From positions 367,642 through 431,641 of the forward strand of contig CAWIDS010000001.1 in the NCBI GenBank assembly GCA_963834935.1: 64,000 bases of DNA, read 5' to 3'. Shown here in pieces: positions 12,918 through 63,147 of this stretch. The notes under the pieces are model-generated. The model worked only from the letters and a program-made list of their open reading frames with translations, was not told where the DNA came from and made no database searches. The DNA is from Candidatus Nomurabacteria bacterium (GTDB taxonomy: Bacteria > Patescibacteriota > Minisyncoccia > Phycocordibacterales > CALRBL01). The position numbers were made by a program, and so were the translations under genes. Numbering within the stretch: the stretch's first letter is position 1; each line of letters starts with the position of its first letter.

Positions 12918-12946
12918 TTGCGTATTATAAGGTTGTATAGTATAGT
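12918..12946 (+). promoter_or_regulatory. Promoter-like element upstream of rpsL (TTGCGT-N17-TATAGT)
   Basis: TTGCGT at 12918–12923 and TATAGT at 12941–12946. It lies about 130 nt upstream of the rpsL start. Confidence 0.4.
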
Positions 12947-13076
12947 CTCCCTCACGTGTTCGGCCCCTTCGCGAATGCTTATTATCAAGAAGATAAGAAT
13001 GAGTAACTGACCTCTCGCACTAAGCGGAAGGGATGTGAAAACGCAGTCTTATCAAACCGTAACAAAAAAATTAACA

Positions 13077-13493
13077 ATGCCTACAGTCAACCAACTAGTG
13101 AAGCGAAATCGCAAAAAGACAGCTCGAAAGCCAAAAGCGGTCGCTTTGCAGCGAAGTTTTAACTCGCTCAAGAACCGTCCTCGTTTCTACCCGTCTCCTT
13201 TCAAGCGAGGTGTGTGTACAAAAGTGACCACAAAGACTCCTAAGAAGCCTAACTCAGCTATTCGAAAGATCGCCCGAGTGCGACTTACTAATGGAATGGA
13301 AGTTACTGCCTACATTCCCGGAATGGGCCACGCTCTTCAAGAGCACTCAGTGGTTCTTCTTCGAGGAGGAAAAGTGAAAGACGTCGGAATCCGATACACT
13401 ATCGTCCGAGGAAAGCTTGATGCCACAGCAGTAGATAAACGAATGAAGGGTCGAAGCATGTACGGAGCTAAGAAGCCTAAGAAAGGAAAGTAA
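13077..13493 (+). CDS. rpsL: 30S ribosomal protein S12
   Basis: [14 protein letters not shown] at the start, with a conserved S12 core including PKKPNSA and LRGG.VKD. Confidence 0.9.
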
Positions 13494-13510: not shown

Positions 13511-13981
13511 ATGCGAAGAAAAATAAAAAAACAGCCAGCTCCCGGTCCTGATGTTATCTACCAATCTGAAAAAGTTTCGAAGTTCGTCAACTACGTTATG
13601 GAACGAGGAAAGAAAGCGGTTGCTCGAAAAGTGGTTTACGATGCTTTCCAGGCTATCAAAGATAAAGAAAAAGTAGAGAATCCTCTCGAAGTCTTTGATA
13701 CAGCTCTAAAAAACACTGCTCCTTCAATGGAAGTCCGCTCACGACGAGTTGGAGGCGCCAACTATCAGGTCCCTCGAGAAGTTCGAGAAGTTCGACGAAA
13801 TTTCCTTTCAATGAAATGGATCATCGACGCCGCTCGATCAAAGAAAGGCCAGCCTATGCACTTGAAACTCGCTGATGAAATCATCCTTGCTTCAAAGAAC
13901 GAAGGTGAAGCCGTAAAGAAACGAGAAAACACTCACAAGATGGCCGAAGCCAACAAGGCTTTCGCACACTTTGCTTGGTAA
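13511..13981 (+). CDS. rpsG: 30S ribosomal protein S7
   Basis: MRRKIKKQP..DVIYQSEKVSKFVNYVM..GKK match the S7 family and it follows rpsL. Confidence 0.9.
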   Translation: MRRKIKKQPAPGPDVIYQSEKVSKFVNYVMERGKKAVARKVVYDAFQAIKDKEKVENPLEVFDTALKNTAPSMEVRSRRVGGANYQVPREVREVRRNFLSMKWIIDAARSKKGQPMHLKLADEIILASKNEGEAVKKRENTHKMAEANKAFAHFAW

Positions 13982-14093
13982 AAACTACGCTTTGTCATTT
14001 ATTTAAAATACACGCATAATTTCTGCTGAAATTTGCTCTGCTCGTGCACTGCGCAAGGTATTTTAAATAAATAACAAAGCTCCGTTCACAAAA

Positions 14094-14116
14094 AACTCCC
14101 AATGGGAGTTTTTTGT
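14094..14116 (+). terminator. Intrinsic terminator after rpsG region
   Basis: ACTCCCAATGGGAGT hairpin followed by TTTTTTGTTTTT. Confidence 0.6.
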
Positions 14117-14137: not shown

Positions 14138-14257
14138 GATGAAAAAACGCTCTTGTATTTGTTGCGGAACTCAAATCGAAGAATGTATGGGTTTTTGTAA
14201 TCGCCCGAGATATACTCAAACTTTTCGAAGGAATAATTTCCGGAGAACAGATCAATG
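14138..14257 (+). CDS. Small Cys-rich (zinc-ribbon-like) peptide, 39 aa; speculative
   Basis: ATG at 14138 gives MKKRSCICCGTQIEECMGFCNRPRYTQTFRRNNFRRTDQ, with 5 Cys in CxCC..C..C spacing. It lies just downstream of an intrinsic terminator and is below the 60-aa track cutoff. Confidence 0.2.
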
Positions 14258-14318
14258 AAGTTTGCGGCAAATGTGCTCTTGGACATGAAGATGAAATCCT
14301 AACTCAACTCGGTCCTGT

Positions 14319-14831
14319 GTGACCGTTTTTTTATTTTGCTTTTTGATGGAAAAGGTGTATAAGGAATTCAGTATGTTTTTTAGTTTTGAATACTTCCTAG
14401 TGGTTTGGCTTTCCTCGTCCAAAAAAGTTCAATCTTGGTTGGTAGTCTGCTGGCTCTATGGGCGATACCAAGAAGAAGATGCTTACGAAAGTTTTCTTCG
14501 TCGCCCGCTACAGGAGATAGAGAGAATCCTAAGGGTATACGTTCTTGATGTTGAGTTTCGTCAGTTATTTTCTGTGGCGGGCTTGGGTATTGATGAAGAA
14601 AGCCGAAGTAGAAAAGGTTTTCCCTTATTCTATATTCGTATCAATCAAGATCTTGACCCAGACACTCAGCTTGAAGGACTTCTTCATGAAATACTTCATA
14701 TTGCTTGTCTTGAATACGGCGCGGTTTCTCCTGACGAAGCGAGGCTCACACAGACTGTCCAAAGAATCCTTAATCGGAAAAATAGGATAAAGATCCAAAA
14801 AATTTTTAGCCACTCAATCCAAACGGATTGA
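14319..14831 (+). CDS. Hypothetical protein with HExxH motif (possible zinc metallopeptidase-like)
   Basis: LLHEILHIACLEYG is located C-terminally. The gene is inserted between rpsG and fusA. The start codon is uncertain, with several in-frame Met. Confidence 0.4.
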   Translation: MTVFLFCFLMEKVYKEFSMFFSFEYFLVVWLSSSKKVQSWLVVCWLYGRYQEEDAYESFLRRPLQEIERILRVYVLDVEFRQLFSVAGLGIDEESRSRKGFPLFYIRINQDLDPDTQLEGLLHEILHIACLEYGAVSPDEARLTQTVQRILNRKNRIKIQKIFSHSIQTD

Positions 14832-15055
14832 GTTTTTTATTTAACGAAGAAAGCTGTCTCCTTTTGAGGGGTGACAGCTTTTGTGTTCTTGTTGCTTTCG
14901 CCGGAGTAAACTCCGACCAATTTTCGGGACGAATCCCTATTCTGGAAACTTGCGCTCCGAACCCCTTCTTTTTTTAAGTTGGTTTGGCAACAAGAACAAG
15001 TACATTCTATATTATTGAAATACCCTGTCAAATATTTTTTTTTGGGGAAATAAAA

Positions 15056-15404: not shown

Positions 15405-16064
15405 TTATTCTAAATCCTCCGGACTCGTAATCTGCTTCCAAAAGGTTGAATAATGTATCTTTATCGGTCGATCGCCAACAGCTTTACTAAATGTCTGAGG
15501 AAGGCCGAATTCATTGCTTCCATTCAGGCGCGCCATTTCGTAATTGAAAATTTCAGGGCAGAGGACACAGGCGCCGGTATAAGTGAGATTTGAAGGAATG
15601 ATATTTTCCTTATCCTCGACGATTTCTTTGAGACAATTGTTTTCATCGACTATTATCTTTCCACCACTTCGTCTCTCTTCTGATTTGTTAACCAAGATCG
15701 CCCAGTCTTTTTCTGATACGAGTTTTTCCAAATCTTCTTTCGAATAAATGTCGTCGCCCATAAGGACGAGGAATTCTTCAGTAAGGAGTTGTTTTGCTTC
15801 GAGGAGGGAATGAGCTGTACCAAGCGCTTCTTTTTGTTCAATATAATGAACATTTCTTCCATTCCATGAATTGCCAAAATACCCCTTGATCTTGTCACCA
15901 AGATAGCCGATTACCAGTACAATATCGGTGATTTCATCGGGAAGTGCATCAAATTTATGTTCAAGTAGATTCTTTCCTTTATACACAAGCATCGGTTTTG
16001 GGGTGGCAATACTCAAATCTCCCATCCTTTTTCCTTTCCCAGCAGCCAGTATTACGCATTTCAT
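15405..16064 (-). CDS. Sugar-phosphate nucleotidyltransferase (NTP_transferase fold)
   Basis: MKCVILAAGKGKRM is the G-rich N-terminal pyrophosphorylase motif (L-x2-G-x-G-T-R-M pattern), with later YIEQKEALGTAHSL. Start is taken at the Met 6 codons into the ORF. Confidence 0.7.
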   Translation of the reverse strand: MKCVILAAGKGKRMGDLSIATPKPMLVYKGKNLLEHKFDALPDEITDIVLVIGYLGDKIKGYFGNSWNGRNVHYIEQKEALGTAHSLLEAKQLLTEEFLVLMGDDIYSKEDLEKLVSEKDWAILVNKSEERRSGGKIIVDENNCLKEIVEDKENIIPSNLTYTGACVLCPEIFNYEMARLNGSNEFGLPQTFSKAVGDRPIKIHYSTFWKQITSPEDLE

Positions 16065-16079
16065 TATCGAAGATGATAT

Positions 16080-16200
16080 CACACAGCTCTGGAAGTCGGT
16101 TATTTTCTTGTTCTGCTTTTATGTAGCGTTTAGGATATCCTTCCGTTCAAGCGTAGTAAAAGTACGAAGAAGAAAATAACCGACTTCCAGAGCTGTGTGA
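16080..16200. repeat. 31-bp perfect inverted repeat (arms 16080–16110 and 16170–16200) with 59-bp spacer, between divergent nucleotidyltransferase gene and fusA
   Basis: TCACACAGCTCTGGAAGTCGGTTATTTTCTT ... AAGAAAATAACCGACTTCCAGAGCTGTGTGA; the arms are exact reverse complements. Confidence 0.8.
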
Positions 16201-16255
16201 TTGCGTATTTCCCCAAATAATGTTATTTTTCTCCTACTACTAATTAATTATATTT

Positions 16256-18397
16256 ATGAATCGCGACTATCCCCTTGAACGAGTACGTAACTTTGGAATC
16301 ATAGCCCACATCGACGCCGGAAAAACCACAACTTCCGAGCGAATTTTGTATTACACAGGTATGTCACACAAGATCGGCGAGGTGCACGAAGGGGAAGCAA
16401 CCACCGACTGGATGGAACAGGAAAAGGAACGAGGAATCACCATCACTGCGGCTGCCATCACTTGTTTTTGGACACCTACCTACTTAGGTGCTGACAAGAC
16501 TCAAATGCATCGATTCAACATCATCGATACGCCTGGTCACGTAGACTTCACAGTGGAAGTGGAACGATCTCTCAAAGTGCTCGACGGAGGAGTCGTCGTA
16601 TTCGACGGAGTTGCCGGCGTAGAGCCACAATCCGAGACAGTATGGCGACAGGCCGACAAATATCACGTACCTCGAATCTGCTTCATCAACAAGCTTGACC
16701 GAACAGGAGGATCGTTCGAACGATCATTCCAGTCAATTATCGACCGACTCACTAAGAAAGCGGTCCGAATGCAGCTTCCTATCGGTGAAGAAGGGGCTTT
16801 TGAAGAAGTCATAGACCTCTTAAAAATGAAGGCCTATGCCTTTGAAGGGGATATGGGTAACAAGATCATCGAAAAAGATATCCCTGAATCACATATGGCT
16901 GATGCTGTTAAATACCGAGCAGAACTTGTTGAGAAAATCGTTGAACACGATGACGAAGCGATGACAGATTTCCTTGAAGGAAAGGAAATCGAAATCGACC
17001 GATTGAAGAAGATTCTTCGAAAGGCAACTATTGCAAATCATATTTTTCCTGTATTCACCGGATCTGCCCTCAAGAATAGGGGTGTACAGCTTGTTCTCGA
17101 CGCCGTCGTTGAATATCTTCCATCTCCTCTCGATATTCCTCCAGTGAAGGGAATCGATCCTAATACCGACGAAGAAACATTCCGAAAGCCGTCAGATGAA
17201 GAGCCTTTTGCCGCTCTTGCTTTCAAACTTCAGTCAGATCCATTCGTCGGACAGCTCACTTTCTTCCGTGTTTACTCAGGAACGATCGAAGCTGGTTCAT
17301 ATATATACAACTCAACAACAGGTCAGAAGGAACGACTCGGACGAATCGTACGACTTCAAGCCAATAAGCGTGAAGAAGTGAAAAAAGTCTTCGCAGGAGA
17401 AATCGCCGCAGCCGTAGGACTGAAAGATGCGAAGACTTCGCACACATTTTGTGATGAAGCTCATCCGATCATCCTTGATCCAATCAAATTCGCTGAACCG
17501 GTGGTATCTCTTCGTATCGAACCCGCAACTAAAGCTGATCAGGAAAAAATGGGTATGGCTCTCAAGAAGCTTTCAGATGAAGATCCTACATTCCGAATCT
17601 CTTCAAACCCTGAAACGATGGAAACTATCATCTCCGGAATGGGAGAGCTTCACCTCGAAATCATGGTAGACCGAATGAAGAGGGAATTCAGCGTCAATGC
17701 GAACGTCGGCAAGCCTCAGGTAGCCTATCGAGAGACGATTCTTGGTTCTGCCGAAGAAGAATATAAATATATCAAGCAGTCAGGAGGAAAGGGACAGTAT
17801 GGTCACGTCAAGATTATTATCAAGCCGATGGAACCTCTTGTTGAAGGAGCCAAAATTCCAAAGAACGTAAAGCGTTATGAAGACTTCGAATTCATCGACA
17901 GCATCAAGGGAGGAGTCATTCCTCAGGAGTTCATTCCAGCCGTTGAAAAGGGTGTACGTGAAGCGATGGAGCGCGGAATCTCCGCTGGTTTCAAAATGGT
18001 CAACATTTCCTGCGAACTTATTTTCGGTTCATACCACGATGTGGACTCGTCCGAAATCGCCTACAAGATCGCCGCTTCCCAAGCATTCCAAGCTGCTGCC
18101 AAAAAAGCCCGTCCCGTCATTCTCGAGCCGATCATGAAAGTGGAAGTGGTCGTTCCGGAGAAATTCATGGGAGACATCACCGGAAACTTGAACTCAAAGC
18201 GTGCTCAGATTGAAGGAATGGAAGATCGAAACCTTCTGAAGGTCATCAAGGCCAAGGTGCCACTTTCTGAAATGTTCGGTTACACTACTACTCTTCGGTC
18301 AATGACTGAAGGACGAGGAAGCGCAACCATGGAATTCGACCACTACGATGTCGTTCCTCCTCATGTCGCTTCGACTATTGCTGAAGCGAGGAAATAA
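16256..18397 (+). CDS. fusA: Elongation factor G
   Basis: [20 protein letters not shown] and DTPGHVDF G-domain motifs. Length 713 aa. Confidence 0.95.
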
Positions 18398-18413
18398 ACG
18401 AAATTAAAATAAA

Positions 18414-18446
18414 AAAGAGACCGAGGCGTGAGCCTCGGTCTTTTGG
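18414..18446. terminator. Bidirectional intrinsic terminator between fusA and a convergent minus-strand ORF
   Basis: The GACCGAGGC-GTGA-GCCTCGGTC hairpin has an A-tract upstream and a T-tract downstream. Confidence 0.65.
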
Positions 18447-18803
18447 TTATAGCTTCAGTCTTGAAGGATAGGAATTGAGGAACACTCCGTAACAGAGACG
18501 TTTGCGGAACTTTAATGCTTCAAGCTGGCTGATGCTGCGCTTCCTTCTGTGGATCTCTTCGATCACATCATGGCATGAAGTATTCTTCTCTCCGATCCGG
18601 AGAGGAACGATTGCCATGCTTTCCTTCTCGTTCAGGAATCTTTTGATCAGCCGGCCGATATCAGGAAGAATTACAGTCTGGATTGAGCTCGCCCTTATCC
18701 CGTAAAATCGGCGGAAATGAAGAGCAAGCTCTTCTCCTGTAGCATGATTCCTGAGCCCTAGCGCAAAAATGACACCTGTCTCTCGTCGTACTCTTGTATG
18801 CAT
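18447..18803 (-). CDS. Hypothetical protein
   Basis: 118-aa ORF convergent with fusA, with a shared hairpin terminator between them. No recognisable motifs. Confidence 0.35.
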   Translation of the reverse strand: MHTRVRRETGVIFALGLRNHATGEELALHFRRFYGIRASSIQTVILPDIGRLIKRFLNEKESMAIVPLRIGEKNTSCHDVIEEIHRRKRSISQLEALKFRKRLCYGVFLNSYPSRLKL

Positions 18804-18897
18804 ATCTCAGTGCGATGTTACTCTCAATATTCCAAAAATCAAGCAAATAAAAAAGCGCCTTTTAAGGGGCGCAGGTTTGGGAAGGCTATCAGGATGC

Positions 18898-19686
18898 TCA
18901 GGAACCGCCAATAGGCACGACCCCTCCTTTTTCATCAGGAGCAGTCCTGACGGACTCGATGTATCGGGAAAGCTTCTCTTCATCGAAGAGAGACTGGAAT
19001 ACATTTCTTTGCCTGAGCGAAGGTTCTATCTCGTCGCCGACATAGAACCATGCTTGAGACATTCCTCTACGAATTTCACCGTTGACGAACGGATTTCCGT
19101 GGAGGTTGAGGTGTATCACGTCTTTCTCGCCGTTCTTGCCGACGCCGGTTATGAGGCGTTTCCTGACAAACTCTCCGTTTGCATGAATACCGGTCGGATC
19201 GGTCTTGAAGAACCTCTGGATCGGCAGGACGTAGCTTATCGGGCTATACTCAGTTGGTTCGAACATGAGCTCTCCTTCGATGAGGCCGATGTAGAGCGTG
19301 TAGTGCGTCCGATACTGCTCGCTTTGGACCATGCCAGTCTCTCTGGTCTCCGCCAAAAGCATAGCCAAGAGCTTGTCCTGGTTATTCCGGAGCTTCTTGT
19401 TGAGGATGAGGACAGGATCGATGCTTTCCCGCTTGAAGCCATAAAGGCGAAGAAGCTGATCGTGCAGAGGGTCGCCGGTAGTCTCACCAGCATCCAATTT
19501 CGCGATCATCGCTTCCTTTGCAACCTCAAGTTCTCGGCCGTAGCTTTCGCGGGTTTTTCTCATTCCTATTTCTGCTTGTCGCAGCGCTTCCTCAGATCTC
19601 AAGACTGCTTCTTTGAAAGCATTTGGTATCTTCAGGAAGTGTTCAGGATTCAGCGGTTCTTTCACATTTTCACTCATAATTCGCAA
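18898..19686 (-). CDS. Hypothetical protein
   Basis: 262-aa ORF with balanced composition, between fusA and tuf on the opposite strand. No family recognised. Confidence 0.45.
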   Translation of the reverse strand: MRIMSENVKEPLNPEHFLKIPNAFKEAVLRSEEALRQAEIGMRKTRESYGRELEVAKEAMIAKLDAGETTGDPLHDQLLRLYGFKRESIDPVLILNKKLRNNQDKLLAMLLAETRETGMVQSEQYRTHYTLYIGLIEGELMFEPTEYSPISYVLPIQRFFKTDPTGIHANGEFVRKRLITGVGKNGEKDVIHLNLHGNPFVNGEIRRGMSQAWFYVGDEIEPSLRQRNVFQSLFDEEKLSRYIESVRTAPDEKGGVVPIGGS

Positions 19687-19743
19687 AGTTCAGTCTAGGT
19701 TTAGGGTTTATCTCTTCCGAAACATTACTCTACCTTAGGGTAT

Positions 19744-19770
19744 TTGACAACAATCTTTCTTTTGTATACT
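19744..19770 (+). promoter_or_regulatory. Promoter-like element upstream of tuf (TTGACA ... TGtATACT)
   Basis: TTGACA at 19744–19749 and an extended −10 TGTATACT at 19763–19770, with a 15–16-nt spacer. Confidence 0.4.
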
Positions 19771-19902
19771 ATTGCTCCTACAACGCTTTTGCGTTTTGTT
19801 TTCGCTCGTTTTTAGCAATTTATCAAGCCGGCTCTAGGTTACTCAGAAGTTTTTAATGGCTTTTGAGAGAACTATAGCCACAATATTAACTAAATAAAAT
19901 AT

Positions 19903-43477: not shown

Positions 43478-43880
43478 GGGAATGACAGGCATCGACAGGA
43501 GAAGCCATTCCTGATTTGCGGCATAGAGCTCCGGGAACTCTTTAAAAGCCCGGAAAACCGAAATGCAAAATCTGCACTTTCAATGGCCAAGTCTGTTGTG
43601 TCTCCGTATTTCGGAGCCAACGATTTCGCTTTCGCTTACGTCCGAGCCTAAATTTTAGACTCGCGCCTAGCGACGCTTCATGGTCCTAGTCCTCTCGGGA
43701 ACAGCGGAGTGTTATAAAGATGAGGATGCTTCGCCAAGCGCCCCGTACGGCGACCAAGACAAGGGGCAAAGCTGACGACCATTTTGTTGATTTCAAGGCC
43801 GTCATTCGAACAAATCATCTACATGCCGTAGATTAGTCAGGAACCTCTCTTGCACCCGAGTTCAATTCTCGGCATTTCCA
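43478..43880 (+). ncRNA. ssrA: Transfer-messenger RNA (tmRNA, ssrA)
   Basis: The 5' GGGAATG pairs with the 3' CATTTCC as an acceptor stem with a G3·U wobble. The conserved ATCGACAGG box follows the 5' strand. A T-arm CCGAG-TTCAATT-CTCGG precedes the 3' acceptor strand and a discriminator A. An internal tag ORF GCC AAC GAT TTC GCT TTC GCT TAC GTC CGA GCC TAA encodes ANDFAFAYVRA. smpB lies about 2.6 kb downstream. Confidence 0.8.
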
Positions 43881-44014
43881 CTATTTTATTGTCTTCAAGT
43901 AGGCTTTGTAAGATAGGGCGTCCAGAGACGTCCTTTTAAAACGTGAAGGGCCCCAAGCCCTCCGGATCGATATACATTATCAAGGTCGCTTAACATTATT
44001 AGCATTATAAACAT

Positions 44015-48863: not shown

Positions 48864-48936
48864 GCCATTGTAGCTCAGTTGGTAGAGCACTCCATTGGTA
48901 ATGGGGAGGTCTCCGGTTCAATCCCGGACAATGGCT
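48864..48936 (+). tRNA. tRNA-Thr (anticodon GGT)
   Basis: Manual cloverleaf: acceptor GCCATTG/CAATGGC, D-arm GCTC-AGTTGGTA-GAGC, anticodon arm CTCCA-TTGGTAA-TGGGG (anticodon GGT), T-arm TCCGG-TTCAATC-CCGGA. Confidence 0.85.
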
Positions 48937-48967
48937 CAGCGATGGGTGCGGTGTCGGCCCGCGCAAT

Positions 48968-49040
48968 GCCGAAGTAGCTCAGTTGGTAGAGCAATGCTTT
49001 CGTAAAGCAGAGGTCGCGAGTTCGATTCTCGCCTTCGGCT
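48968..49040 (+). tRNA. tRNA-Thr (anticodon CGT)
   Basis: Acceptor GCCGAAG/CTTCGGC, D-arm GCTC-AGTTGGTA-GAGC, anticodon arm ATGCT-TTCGTAA-AGCAG (anticodon CGT, 27:43 mismatch), T-arm GCGAG-TTCGATT-CTCGC. Confidence 0.8.
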
Positions 49041-49091
49041 CACTGTTTCCGCCACTTAGACTTTTCTTTCCTAATTTAGTAGACTTCCGAT

Positions 49092-56563: not shown

Positions 56564-56637
56564 TGCGGGATCGTCTAATGGTAGGACTACAGATTCTGGA
56601 TCTGTGTATCTTGGTTCGAGTCCAAGTCCCGCAGCCA
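56564..56637 (+). tRNA. tRNA-Gln (anticodon CTG), 3' CCA encoded
   Basis: Acceptor TGCGGGA/TCCCGCA (U1–A72), a 3-bp D-stem GTC/GAC, anticodon arm ACAGA-TTCTGGA-TCTGT (anticodon CTG), T-arm CTTGG-TTCGAGT-CCAAG, discriminator G, then CCA. Confidence 0.85.
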
Positions 56638-62538: not shown

Positions 62539-63147
62539 ATAGCTTTCGCCAACTGCTCACTCGTCGGCCGAGTAAGTTTGTAGATGCCGTCCTTCAAATT
62601 CGGGATGTAATGGAGCTCGGTTGTGGTCTTAAAATAGGTCATTATTTCGTCAACAGTTCGGAGCATTGTAGGACTCGCAACCATGAAAGGACTCTCCTGC
62701 CTTTGCAGAGACTCATCTTTTAATAGTTCGAAGGTAGTATTTAACCTAGGGACCCACTTCGGGAAAAGTCTTTGTGTCGCTACTCATGCATGATCGTTGA
62801 TCGAACGGGACGAGAAGTCAATGTAAGCAAACTTGAACTTCCTATAAACCACTATCTGGATTACAATTACCTCATTGGAATACACGCCTCGCTCCCCTTG
62901 GGGCACACAGAGGCCCCGATGCACACAAAATCAAGGACCAAAAATATTCAAAGGATCGATTGAATAACTCATCTTTTTATTAAGACTCTTTCATTTGGAA
63001 AGCGTGGGGTTCGTGGTTCTCTTGGGGATCGCCTGTCGGTATGGGTCTGGGCTGGGCACTGTTCATCATCCCGCTCGGATATTTTCTCCTTCTGCTTCAT
63101 ATGGCAGGAATTCTCCACTAAATAAAATATCAAAAGCCTATAGCAAA

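Follow-up and report, generated by a model that had tools for sequence, protein, structure and literature searches.

A perfect inverted repeat between the divergent promoters of a nucleotidyltransferase gene and fusA in a Patescibacteria genome: a possible solitary MITE-like insertion

The 64-kb stretch of DNA analysed here, hereafter called the window, comes from a Patescibacteria (Paceibacteria) genome whose EF-G is at most 81% identical to that of species representatives; the closest EF-G proteins in the databases are 94% and 91% identical (L096 and L097, respectively). The genes of interest follow one another in the order rpsL, rpsG, an interval of 2.27 kb, the inverted repeat that is the subject of this work, and fusA.

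13035-13493: rpsL
13511-13981: rpsG
13989-14080, plus strand: structured RNA motif, which begins 8 nt past the stop codon of rpsG; a terminator-like hairpin (14088-14116) comes next
15405-16064, minus strand: sugar-phosphate nucleotidyltransferase gene (219 aa), divergent from fusA
16256-18397, plus strand: fusA (EF-G, 713 aa)

The interval after rpsG has a lower G+C content and contains the hairpin at 13989-14080 with its terminator-like site, small ORFs, an M78-like ORF, an 83-aa ORF and the nucleotidyltransferase gene. As a preliminary description of this DNA had it, the repeat lies between the divergent nucleotidyltransferase gene (Pfam NTP_transferase, 5e-16; identical database protein P0001) and fusA. 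Its right arm ends 54 nt before the fusA ATG at 16256. The same description placed one arm over the first codons or 5' UTR of the minus-strand gene, which is incorrect as to the codons: that gene begins with the ATG at 16064, in agreement with homologues that begin MKAVIL and with P0001, which is likewise 219 aa long, and the left arm lies 13 nt upstream, with no coding overlap. The M78-like ORF (14319-14831, plus strand, 170 aa) contains a HEILH (HExxH) motif, and its match to Peptidase_M78 (IrrE-like) is weak (E = 0.0018, below the Pfam cut-off). On the other side of fusA, the split str operon has a further variable insert, the 1.5-kb fusA-tuf interval (18398-19902); it holds overlapping ORFs of 309 aa (plus strand) and of 262 and 118 aa (minus strand) with no Pfam match. 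Farther along the window lie a tmRNA (43478-43883, Rfam 79.7 bits), two adjacent tRNA-Thr genes (48864-49041) and a tRNA-Gln gene (56564-56637).

The repeat itself consists of two arms and a spacer, to none of which a strand is assigned.

16078-16109: left arm of a perfect 32-bp inverted repeat, ATCACACAGCTCTGGAAGTCGGTTATTTTCTT
16110-16169: spacer of 60 nt, an imperfect continuation of the stem on the plus strand
16170-16201: right arm, which is the left arm in perfect reverse complement and whose last base is the first T of the fusA -35 box

Within the window there are exactly two occurrences of the 31-mer TCACACAGCTCTGGAAGTCGGTTATTTTCTT, one at 16079-16109 on the plus strand and one at 16170-16200 on the minus strand, so that of the arm coordinates given previously those of the right arm hold, whereas those of the left arm (16080-16110) are one base off. 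If one G/G mismatch is allowed, the arms grow to 36 bp (16078-16113 and 16166-16201), with 52 nt between them. The earlier assertion that such a repeat exceeds chance in 64 kb is borne out: none of 100 dinucleotide-preserving shuffles gave a match to the 31-mer, and about 7e-13 perfect 32-bp inverted repeats with a spacer of at most 200 nt are expected by chance per 64 kb. There is no longer perfect inverted repeat within the 1.02 Mb of Patescibacteria sequence examined. Folding of the RNA of the region, a check proposed at the outset, gave a very stable structure on both strands (plus strand, -83.7 kcal/mol, z = -13.9; minus strand, -71.3 kcal/mol, z = -9.4), and the 124-nt element folded as DNA at -42.8 kcal/mol. 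On the plus strand the stem extends imperfectly into the spacer, through three pairs (16111-16113 with 16166-16168) and nine further ones (16114-16122 with 16156-16164), two of which are G-U. The spacer folded alone gave -15.9 kcal/mol (z = -2.1) on the plus strand and -5.9 kcal/mol (z = +0.4) on the minus strand; it includes a 10-bp palindrome, AGGATATCCT, at 16132-16141.

The structured RNA motif downstream of rpsG resembles the repeat in that it lies in the same rpsG-to-fusA interval and has a long closing stem around an interior of 46-60 nt. Rather than a plain palindrome, it is a conserved three-way-junction core (ACGCAUA, a hairpin, UGCUCUGCUCG, a hairpin and CUGCGCAAG) enclosed by a long closing stem of variable sequence, and in relatives the interior recurs while the closing stems differ in sequence yet stay paired. 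A covariance model, R1, built from seven copies of the motif gave 14 matches in 1.01 Mb, with scores of 40-91 bits.

Window: 13989-14080, plus strand, after rpsG
L003: 478-573 and 1749-1844, both minus strand, and 12918-13011
L006: 7783-7879
L009: 5412-5517, after fusA
L010: 831-922
L022: 4326-4418, after rpsG
L024: 12561-12652, minus strand
L026: 8151-8280, after fusA
L029: 410-501 and 3480-3571
L037: 1146-1238 and 13329-13421, one of the two after rpsG

The motif often begins about 10-80 nt past the stop codon of rpsG or fusA, and there are several copies per genome. Pairing within the motif amounted to 91%, versus 37-49% in slid controls, with 30 of 32 pairs changed on both sides, in an alignment fitted to the model, which favours pairing. 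No Rfam family matched the motif in the window or in seven loci carrying it, and R1 had no match in the L081-L095 loci. The motif is a covariation-supported structured RNA that is absent from Rfam; possible roles are those of an element associated with 3' ends or terminators and of a riboswitch-like leader. When R1 was run with filters off on the fusA-upstream repeat, the two strands scored 10.7 and 10.5 bits, as against the range given above for the matches, and such low scores indicate that the two hairpins are unrelated; unlike the motif, the repeat has neither the conserved core nor the three-way junction. The idea that the two hairpins (13989-14080 and 16078-16201) form the ends of a cassette between rpsG and fusA was discarded because the first is a motif found at many places, and also because the layout running from rpsG to the nucleotidyltransferase gene and fusA is common to relatives. 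After the motif and its terminator-like hairpin comes a candidate cysteine-rich frame of about 39 aa (14140-14259, plus strand; MKKRSCICCGTQIEECMGFC...), read by eye and with an internal stop within these coordinates; the layout resembles that of a regulated leader and its gene.

On either side of the repeat, at its very edges, lie the predicted core promoters of the two divergent genes.

16073-16081, minus strand: extended -10 box of the nucleotidyltransferase gene, TGaTATCAT, predicted from the sequence
16201-16229, plus strand: predicted fusA promoter, with a -35 box TTGCGT (16201-16206), a 17-nt spacer, TG (16221-16222) and a -10 box TATTTT (16224-16229)

The layout of the predicted fusA promoter is common to 13 genomes (L004, L081, L082, L084, L085, L087, L088 and L090-L095, compared over a conserved segment that corresponds to 16201-16255 of the window). 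It comprises a -35 box made of TTGC and two variable bases, a spacer of 17 nt that closes with TAATG(C/T), and a -10 box that reads TAGCTT in L081 and TATTTT in the other 12; TCTCCTACTA follows the -10 box in most of them. In a generic promoter scan the fusA promoter fell below threshold, with 8 of 12 matches. As for the nucleotidyltransferase gene, in most relatives a -10 box (TATACT or TAATAT) precedes the ATG by 6-15 nt. In the window the distance is 8 nt, and the left arm, with its outer end, supplies the TG of the predicted extended box. Both transcripts are accordingly predicted from the promoter sequences to start at the outer edges of the repeat and to read away from it. Since both are predicted to start outside the hairpin, the suggestion that the repeat acts in RNA as an attenuator or RNase III site is disfavoured: the fusA promoter begins where the right arm ends, and the other gene has its -10 box between its own ATG and the hairpin. 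In addition, the upstream plus-strand ORF has its own terminator-like site (14812-14833), and no plus-strand gene reads into the element. From this arrangement I infer the transcription starts as well as the absence of a role in RNA. Nor is the repeat an intrinsic terminator, since no T-run follows the stem: the tail downstream is TGCGTATTTC, the loop measures 60 nt, and a terminator scan was silent at this position. In more distant Paceibacteria (L003, L012, L014, L016-L021 and others) a short G+C hairpin comes directly after the fusA promoter (TTGCAA, 17 nt, TATAGT or TATACT), and a CUUUUUAUUUUU tract then precedes the ATG; this arrangement lies some 15-60 nt ahead of fusA. This terminator-like leader, which the window and its clade do not have, could be an attenuator.

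The divergent nucleotidyltransferase/fusA pair is kept in ten related contigs (L004, L081, L082, L084-L088, L090 and L091). None of them has, in this place, either the repeat or any palindrome like it, and the repeat is also absent from the two loci closest by EF-G, L096 and L097; the comparison of fusA upstream regions that the preliminary description called for thus found it in no relative. A second metagenome scan, made with the conserved promoter word, returned only relatives of the L004 clade, again devoid of the repeat. The most informative contig is L088, whose intergenic sequence is the same as that of L089, a 1.4-kb fragment. In L088 and L089, CAT (the nucleotidyltransferase start on the reverse strand) is followed by 13 nt and ATTGCGCATT, with a single AT. 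In the window, CAT is followed by 13 nt, AT, the element (CACACAG...CTGTGTG) and ATTGCGTATT, that is, the element is succeeded by AT and then by TGCGTATT... Taking 122 nt out of the window restores the L088 geometry exactly, the insertion boundaries being anchored on the start codon and on the ATTGCG word, as automatic pairwise alignment places the gap imprecisely. L088 is distant from the window (78% identity for EF-G and 63% for the nucleotidyltransferase) and the 13-nt stretches differ in sequence; the equal spacing, seen in these two sequences, could be a coincidence. Taken together, the absence of the repeat from relatives and the identical 13-nt offset in L088 suggest that the repeat is a discrete insertion, which can be delimited as follows, again with no strand assigned.

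16078-16079: AT, left copy of a candidate 2-bp target-site duplication (single AT in L088)
16080-16199: putative inserted element of 120 bp, CACACAG...CTGTGTG, delimited by comparison with the insertion-free L088/L089 and by reference to the ORF list
16200-16201: AT, candidate duplication, right copy; from 16200 onwards, the right edge of the repeat, the sequence is again homologous to the fusA promoter region of relatives (L004/L082, blastn E = 4e-8)

The terminal inverted repeats of the element are perfect and 30 bp long. Because AT is self-complementary, the repeat measures 32 bp rather than 30 when the flanking AT is counted, and the presence of AT at both ends, as against the single AT of the distant L088, is indistinguishable from a 2-bp extension of the arms. 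The element (120-124 bp) is devoid of any credible ORF, the only ORFs that touch it being antisense ones that run in from the nucleotidyltransferase gene, and the whole of it forms one hairpin.

The region in which this element sits is variable. In most of the contigs that keep the gene pair, orfX (117-132 aa) lies between the two genes, in the same direction as fusA; L084 has two unannotated genes in its place, and the window contains neither orfX nor a remnant of it. By EF-G identity, L088 (90%) falls below six orfX-bearing genomes (93-98% to one another), and the window falls outside them all (78-80%). Since L088, which branches below the orfX genomes, and the window both lack orfX, the compact state seen in these sequences is probably ancestral. 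For the same reasons (no orfX remnant in the window, and an absence that L088 shares and that is probably ancestral), loss of orfX was rejected as the origin of the repeat. In L004, the stretch between orfX and the fusA promoter (1129-1661) encodes a DUF6364-like antitoxin candidate and a YafQ/ParE-family toxin (Pfam, 1.2e-9), that is, a type II toxin-antitoxin pair. Upstream of the same fusA promoter L092, which has no nucleotidyltransferase gene on its contig, displays a sequence resembling orfX together with a toxin-like 3' end. L096 and L097 have no nucleotidyltransferase gene beside fusA but other upstream genes, and the fusA promoter and leader of L096 are unrelated to those of the window. 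The sequence just upstream of the fusA -35 box therefore differs in almost every lineage, being occupied by orfX, by the YafQ-family toxin cassette or by unrelated genes, and in these comparisons the -35 box marks a hotspot of recombination or insertion. Like the promoter and leader, the beginning of fusA in the window (16256-16315) resembles the L004/L088 clade: its first 60 nt match L088, L082 and L004 at 51-53 of 60 positions and L096 and L097 at 46-48 of 60, whereas the rest of the gene is nearer to L096 and L097, a weak hint that a recombination junction may lie near the 5' end of fusA.

Two similarities between the repeat and relatives were considered. The left flank and arm match the 3' end of the YafQ-like toxin gene of L004 at 15 of 17 nt, which is not significant, as 13 of 200 shuffles reach it. 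The inner left arm and the start of the spacer align with the fusA promoter region of L081 with a score of 26, reached by 3 of 1000 random windows; this similarity is borderline, being one of 13 comparisons made. An inverted repeat of another sort was noticed in the rpsG-fusA spacer of L026 (5860-5995), where a unit of about 27 nt (CTAAAAAGCTAA.AGCTACAAGCTA) occurs three times, twice in direct and once in inverted orientation. These copies fold into a hairpin of 18 bp whose loop measures 30 nt, and their sequence is unrelated to that of the repeat in the window.

Further copies of the repeat were sought at several levels. The 64-kb window yielded no second copy when as many as three mismatches were tolerated, and the repeat has no copy in 97 related or fetched loci. 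Exact arm words had no match in the genome and metagenome collections scanned. One of two viral scans with arm words was empty and the other returned a single 19-mer match (L083), which was attributed to chance: it lies at the start of a coding sequence, and the number of matches is about what chance predicts. BLAST found no match in plasmids and only one 22-nt match (E = 0.1) in phages. A 20/23 match at 63075-63097 of the window belongs to an unrelated region in which no flanking similarity was seen, and was likewise treated as chance. No Rfam family matched the repeat at gathering thresholds; in a permissive search the best hits were plant microRNA hairpin models, at 39 bits versus a threshold of 140. 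The 64-kb window contains neither a transposase nor a full-length element whose ends match, matching ends were likewise absent from the fetched loci, and a literature search on MITEs in Patescibacteria retrieved no relevant paper. The preliminary description had held that a repeat absent from close relatives, without further copies and without effect on transcript boundaries would be a neutral recent duplication; the first two circumstances apply within the window, the relatives and the collections searched.

The reading that I favour, with roughly even confidence, is that the repeat is a solitary MITE-like palindromic insertion into a compact divergent promoter region, a conclusion drawn from sequence comparison. 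Among the suggestions made earlier, that of a MITE remnant fits best, given the absence of the repeat from all relatives and the restoration of the L088 site upon removal of 122 nt; repetitiveness, the property that defines a MITE, has no support in the sequence searched, no second copy having been found in the window, the fetched loci or the collections scanned. The element has terminal inverted repeats, a small size (within about 50-500 bp) without coding capacity, and an empty site (at a distance of 78% EF-G identity). The TA target duplication of Correia-type elements is not there: the flanks are AT/AT, and shifting the boundary gives TA on the left and TT on the right. The candidate duplication is AT, versus the TA typical of IS630/mariner-type MITEs. 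From these features I infer the AT duplication and a mechanism of insertion in which a discrete, non-coding palindromic element of about 120 bp would have entered this lineage only, most likely as a MITE or similar foldback element, its target being the very compact region that contains the back-to-back promoters of the nucleotidyltransferase gene and fusA. The element is probably young, because its arms are still perfect. Its arrival would have moved the core promoters 122 bp further apart without destroying either: the predicted fusA -35 and -10 boxes appear intact directly to its right, and the predicted nucleotidyltransferase -10 box directly to its left, having gained an upstream TG. As both genes are predicted to be transcribed away from it, the element is probably in neither mRNA, and any effect would be exerted at the DNA level, by loss of upstream promoter contacts or by the new extended -10 box, or there would be none. 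Published bacterial MITEs have a similar size and shape, adjoin promoters and can supply promoter elements (PMC10969869, PMC2649163). Other histories are possible, given an upstream sequence that differs in almost every lineage.

The main competitor, which I consider unlikely, is an in-place inverted duplication, whereby template switching or fold-back repair would have copied a native stretch in reverse with no mobile element involved. It would account for the single copy in all the sequence searched and sits well with the rearrangement of the region upstream of the fusA -35 box in nearly every lineage; moreover, the spacer palindrome AGGATATCCT could seed a fold-back. The alignment with the L081 promoter region would, if real, favour in-place duplication over an imported mobile element, but it is borderline after 13 comparisons and missing for most other relatives. 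Neither arm matches the sequence of relatives on either side of the site, and the extra 122 nt fall cleanly between two kept landmarks, at the same 13-nt offset as in L088, as an insertion predicts. A DNA switch or operator is less probable still. Here the repeat would be a cruciform or a protein-binding palindrome that couples the divergent promoters, or would flank an invertible segment flipped by a recombinase; indeed, it fills the whole space between the two predicted core promoters, and perfect arms are expected of a recombinase target or of a maintained palindrome. An assembler, moreover, cannot orient a 60-nt segment between 32-bp arms unless single reads span an arm and the spacer. However, no relative has a palindrome at this position, so that the cruciform or repressor site put forward earlier finds no support as a conserved operator; the 60-nt spacer holds no convincing promoter, whether judged by the clade's own consensus or by the promoter scan, and no recombinase was seen among the neighbouring genes. 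Besides, 60 bp is little for a segment on which a recombinase has to form a synapse, and a spacer of 60 nt makes the extrusion of a cruciform less likely.

A role as an RNA hairpin in the fusA or nucleotidyltransferase transcript, or as a small RNA of its own, serving as attenuator, stability element or RNase III site, has an even slighter chance than a DNA switch. Its appeal is the very stable predicted structure, with a spacer that folds better on the plus strand by virtue of the two G-U pairs, and a long double-stranded stem such as RNase III substrates have, as has been shown for transcribed Correia elements (PMC2649163, PMC10969869). Against it stand the promoter positions described above (the conserved fusA -35 and -10 boxes downstream of the hairpin, the nucleotidyltransferase -10 box between hairpin and ATG), the terminator-like site that ends the upstream plus-strand ORF so that no plus-strand gene reads in, and a stem that, with no T-run behind it, is no intrinsic terminator. 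The structure is kept in no relative, and the strand asymmetry amounts to these two G-U pairs only. The least probable explanation, which would be surprising if true, is an artefact of assembly. The source is a contig of an uncultured organism from a metagenome-assembled genome, and the sequence is in none of the independent assemblies scanned, but the 60-nt spacer is unique and the flanks are collinear with relatives. An arm length of 32 matches no common k-mer overlap size, and fold-back chimeras give long palindromes at contig ends, not short internal ones. Finally, perfect arms could be read as a sign of maintenance and not of youth, the element then being functional, either as a DNA switch that couples or insulates fusA and the nucleotidyltransferase gene or as a stand-alone hairpin RNA gene with its own promoter; I hold this to be quite improbable.

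On its own the repeat is an event of minor importance, specific to one lineage and probably neutral. The genomes of Patescibacteria are small and streamlined; the presence in this one of a transposon-like palindrome between the predicted core promoters of fusA and of the gene beside it shows that even essential translation genes of these organisms adjoin a recombination and insertion hotspot. If further copies exist, they would define a MITE family in this phylum and provide a natural experiment on promoter spacing. More useful are the by-products of the analysis: a predicted fusA promoter kept in 13 genomes, a hypervariable junction upstream of its -35 box, and an RNA motif absent from Rfam.

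How the element compares with known systems bears on its classification. Several classes were set aside on inspection: no integron attC motifs are present in the sequence (read by eye), the half-sites of a CRP-like TGTGA/TCACA site are in the wrong order and spacing (also by eye), the element ends in CA...TG and not in TG...CA as IS3- or Tn7-type ends do, and no reverse transcriptase gene that would accompany retron-like repeats occurs among the neighbouring ORFs. Among the long perfect hairpins of these genomes the commonest are bidirectional intrinsic terminators, which are likewise intergenic and have a long perfect stem, but their loop is 0-4 nt as compared with 60 nt here, and the repeat has no flanking A/T runs and lies between divergent starts, not convergent ends. 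With invertons it shares inverted repeats around a short segment upstream of genes, in this case between two divergent ones, yet the segment is only 60 bp, with no convincing internal promoter and no recombinase gene nearby. Quasipalindromes and template-switch fold-backs are similar in being perfect single-copy inverted repeats at a rearrangement-prone site with a short central palindrome, and differ in that here no confident donor sequence was found and the extra bases form a clean insertion relative to L088. The closest parallels are the Correia elements of Neisseria (CREE) and the ERIC elements of enterobacteria. In contrast to these, the element of the window is present in one copy in the sequence searched, with no family or partner transposase found and AT in place of TA, and, unlike Correia elements, it is predicted to be untranscribed, so that RNase III processing is not expected. 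Like them, it is about 120 bp long and non-coding, has long terminal inverted repeats, folds into one hairpin, and is intergenic, beside promoters, with a possible 2-bp duplication flanking it; and, as with Correia ends, one of its ends may contribute part of a promoter, the TG of an extended -10 box (PMC10969869, PMC2649163).
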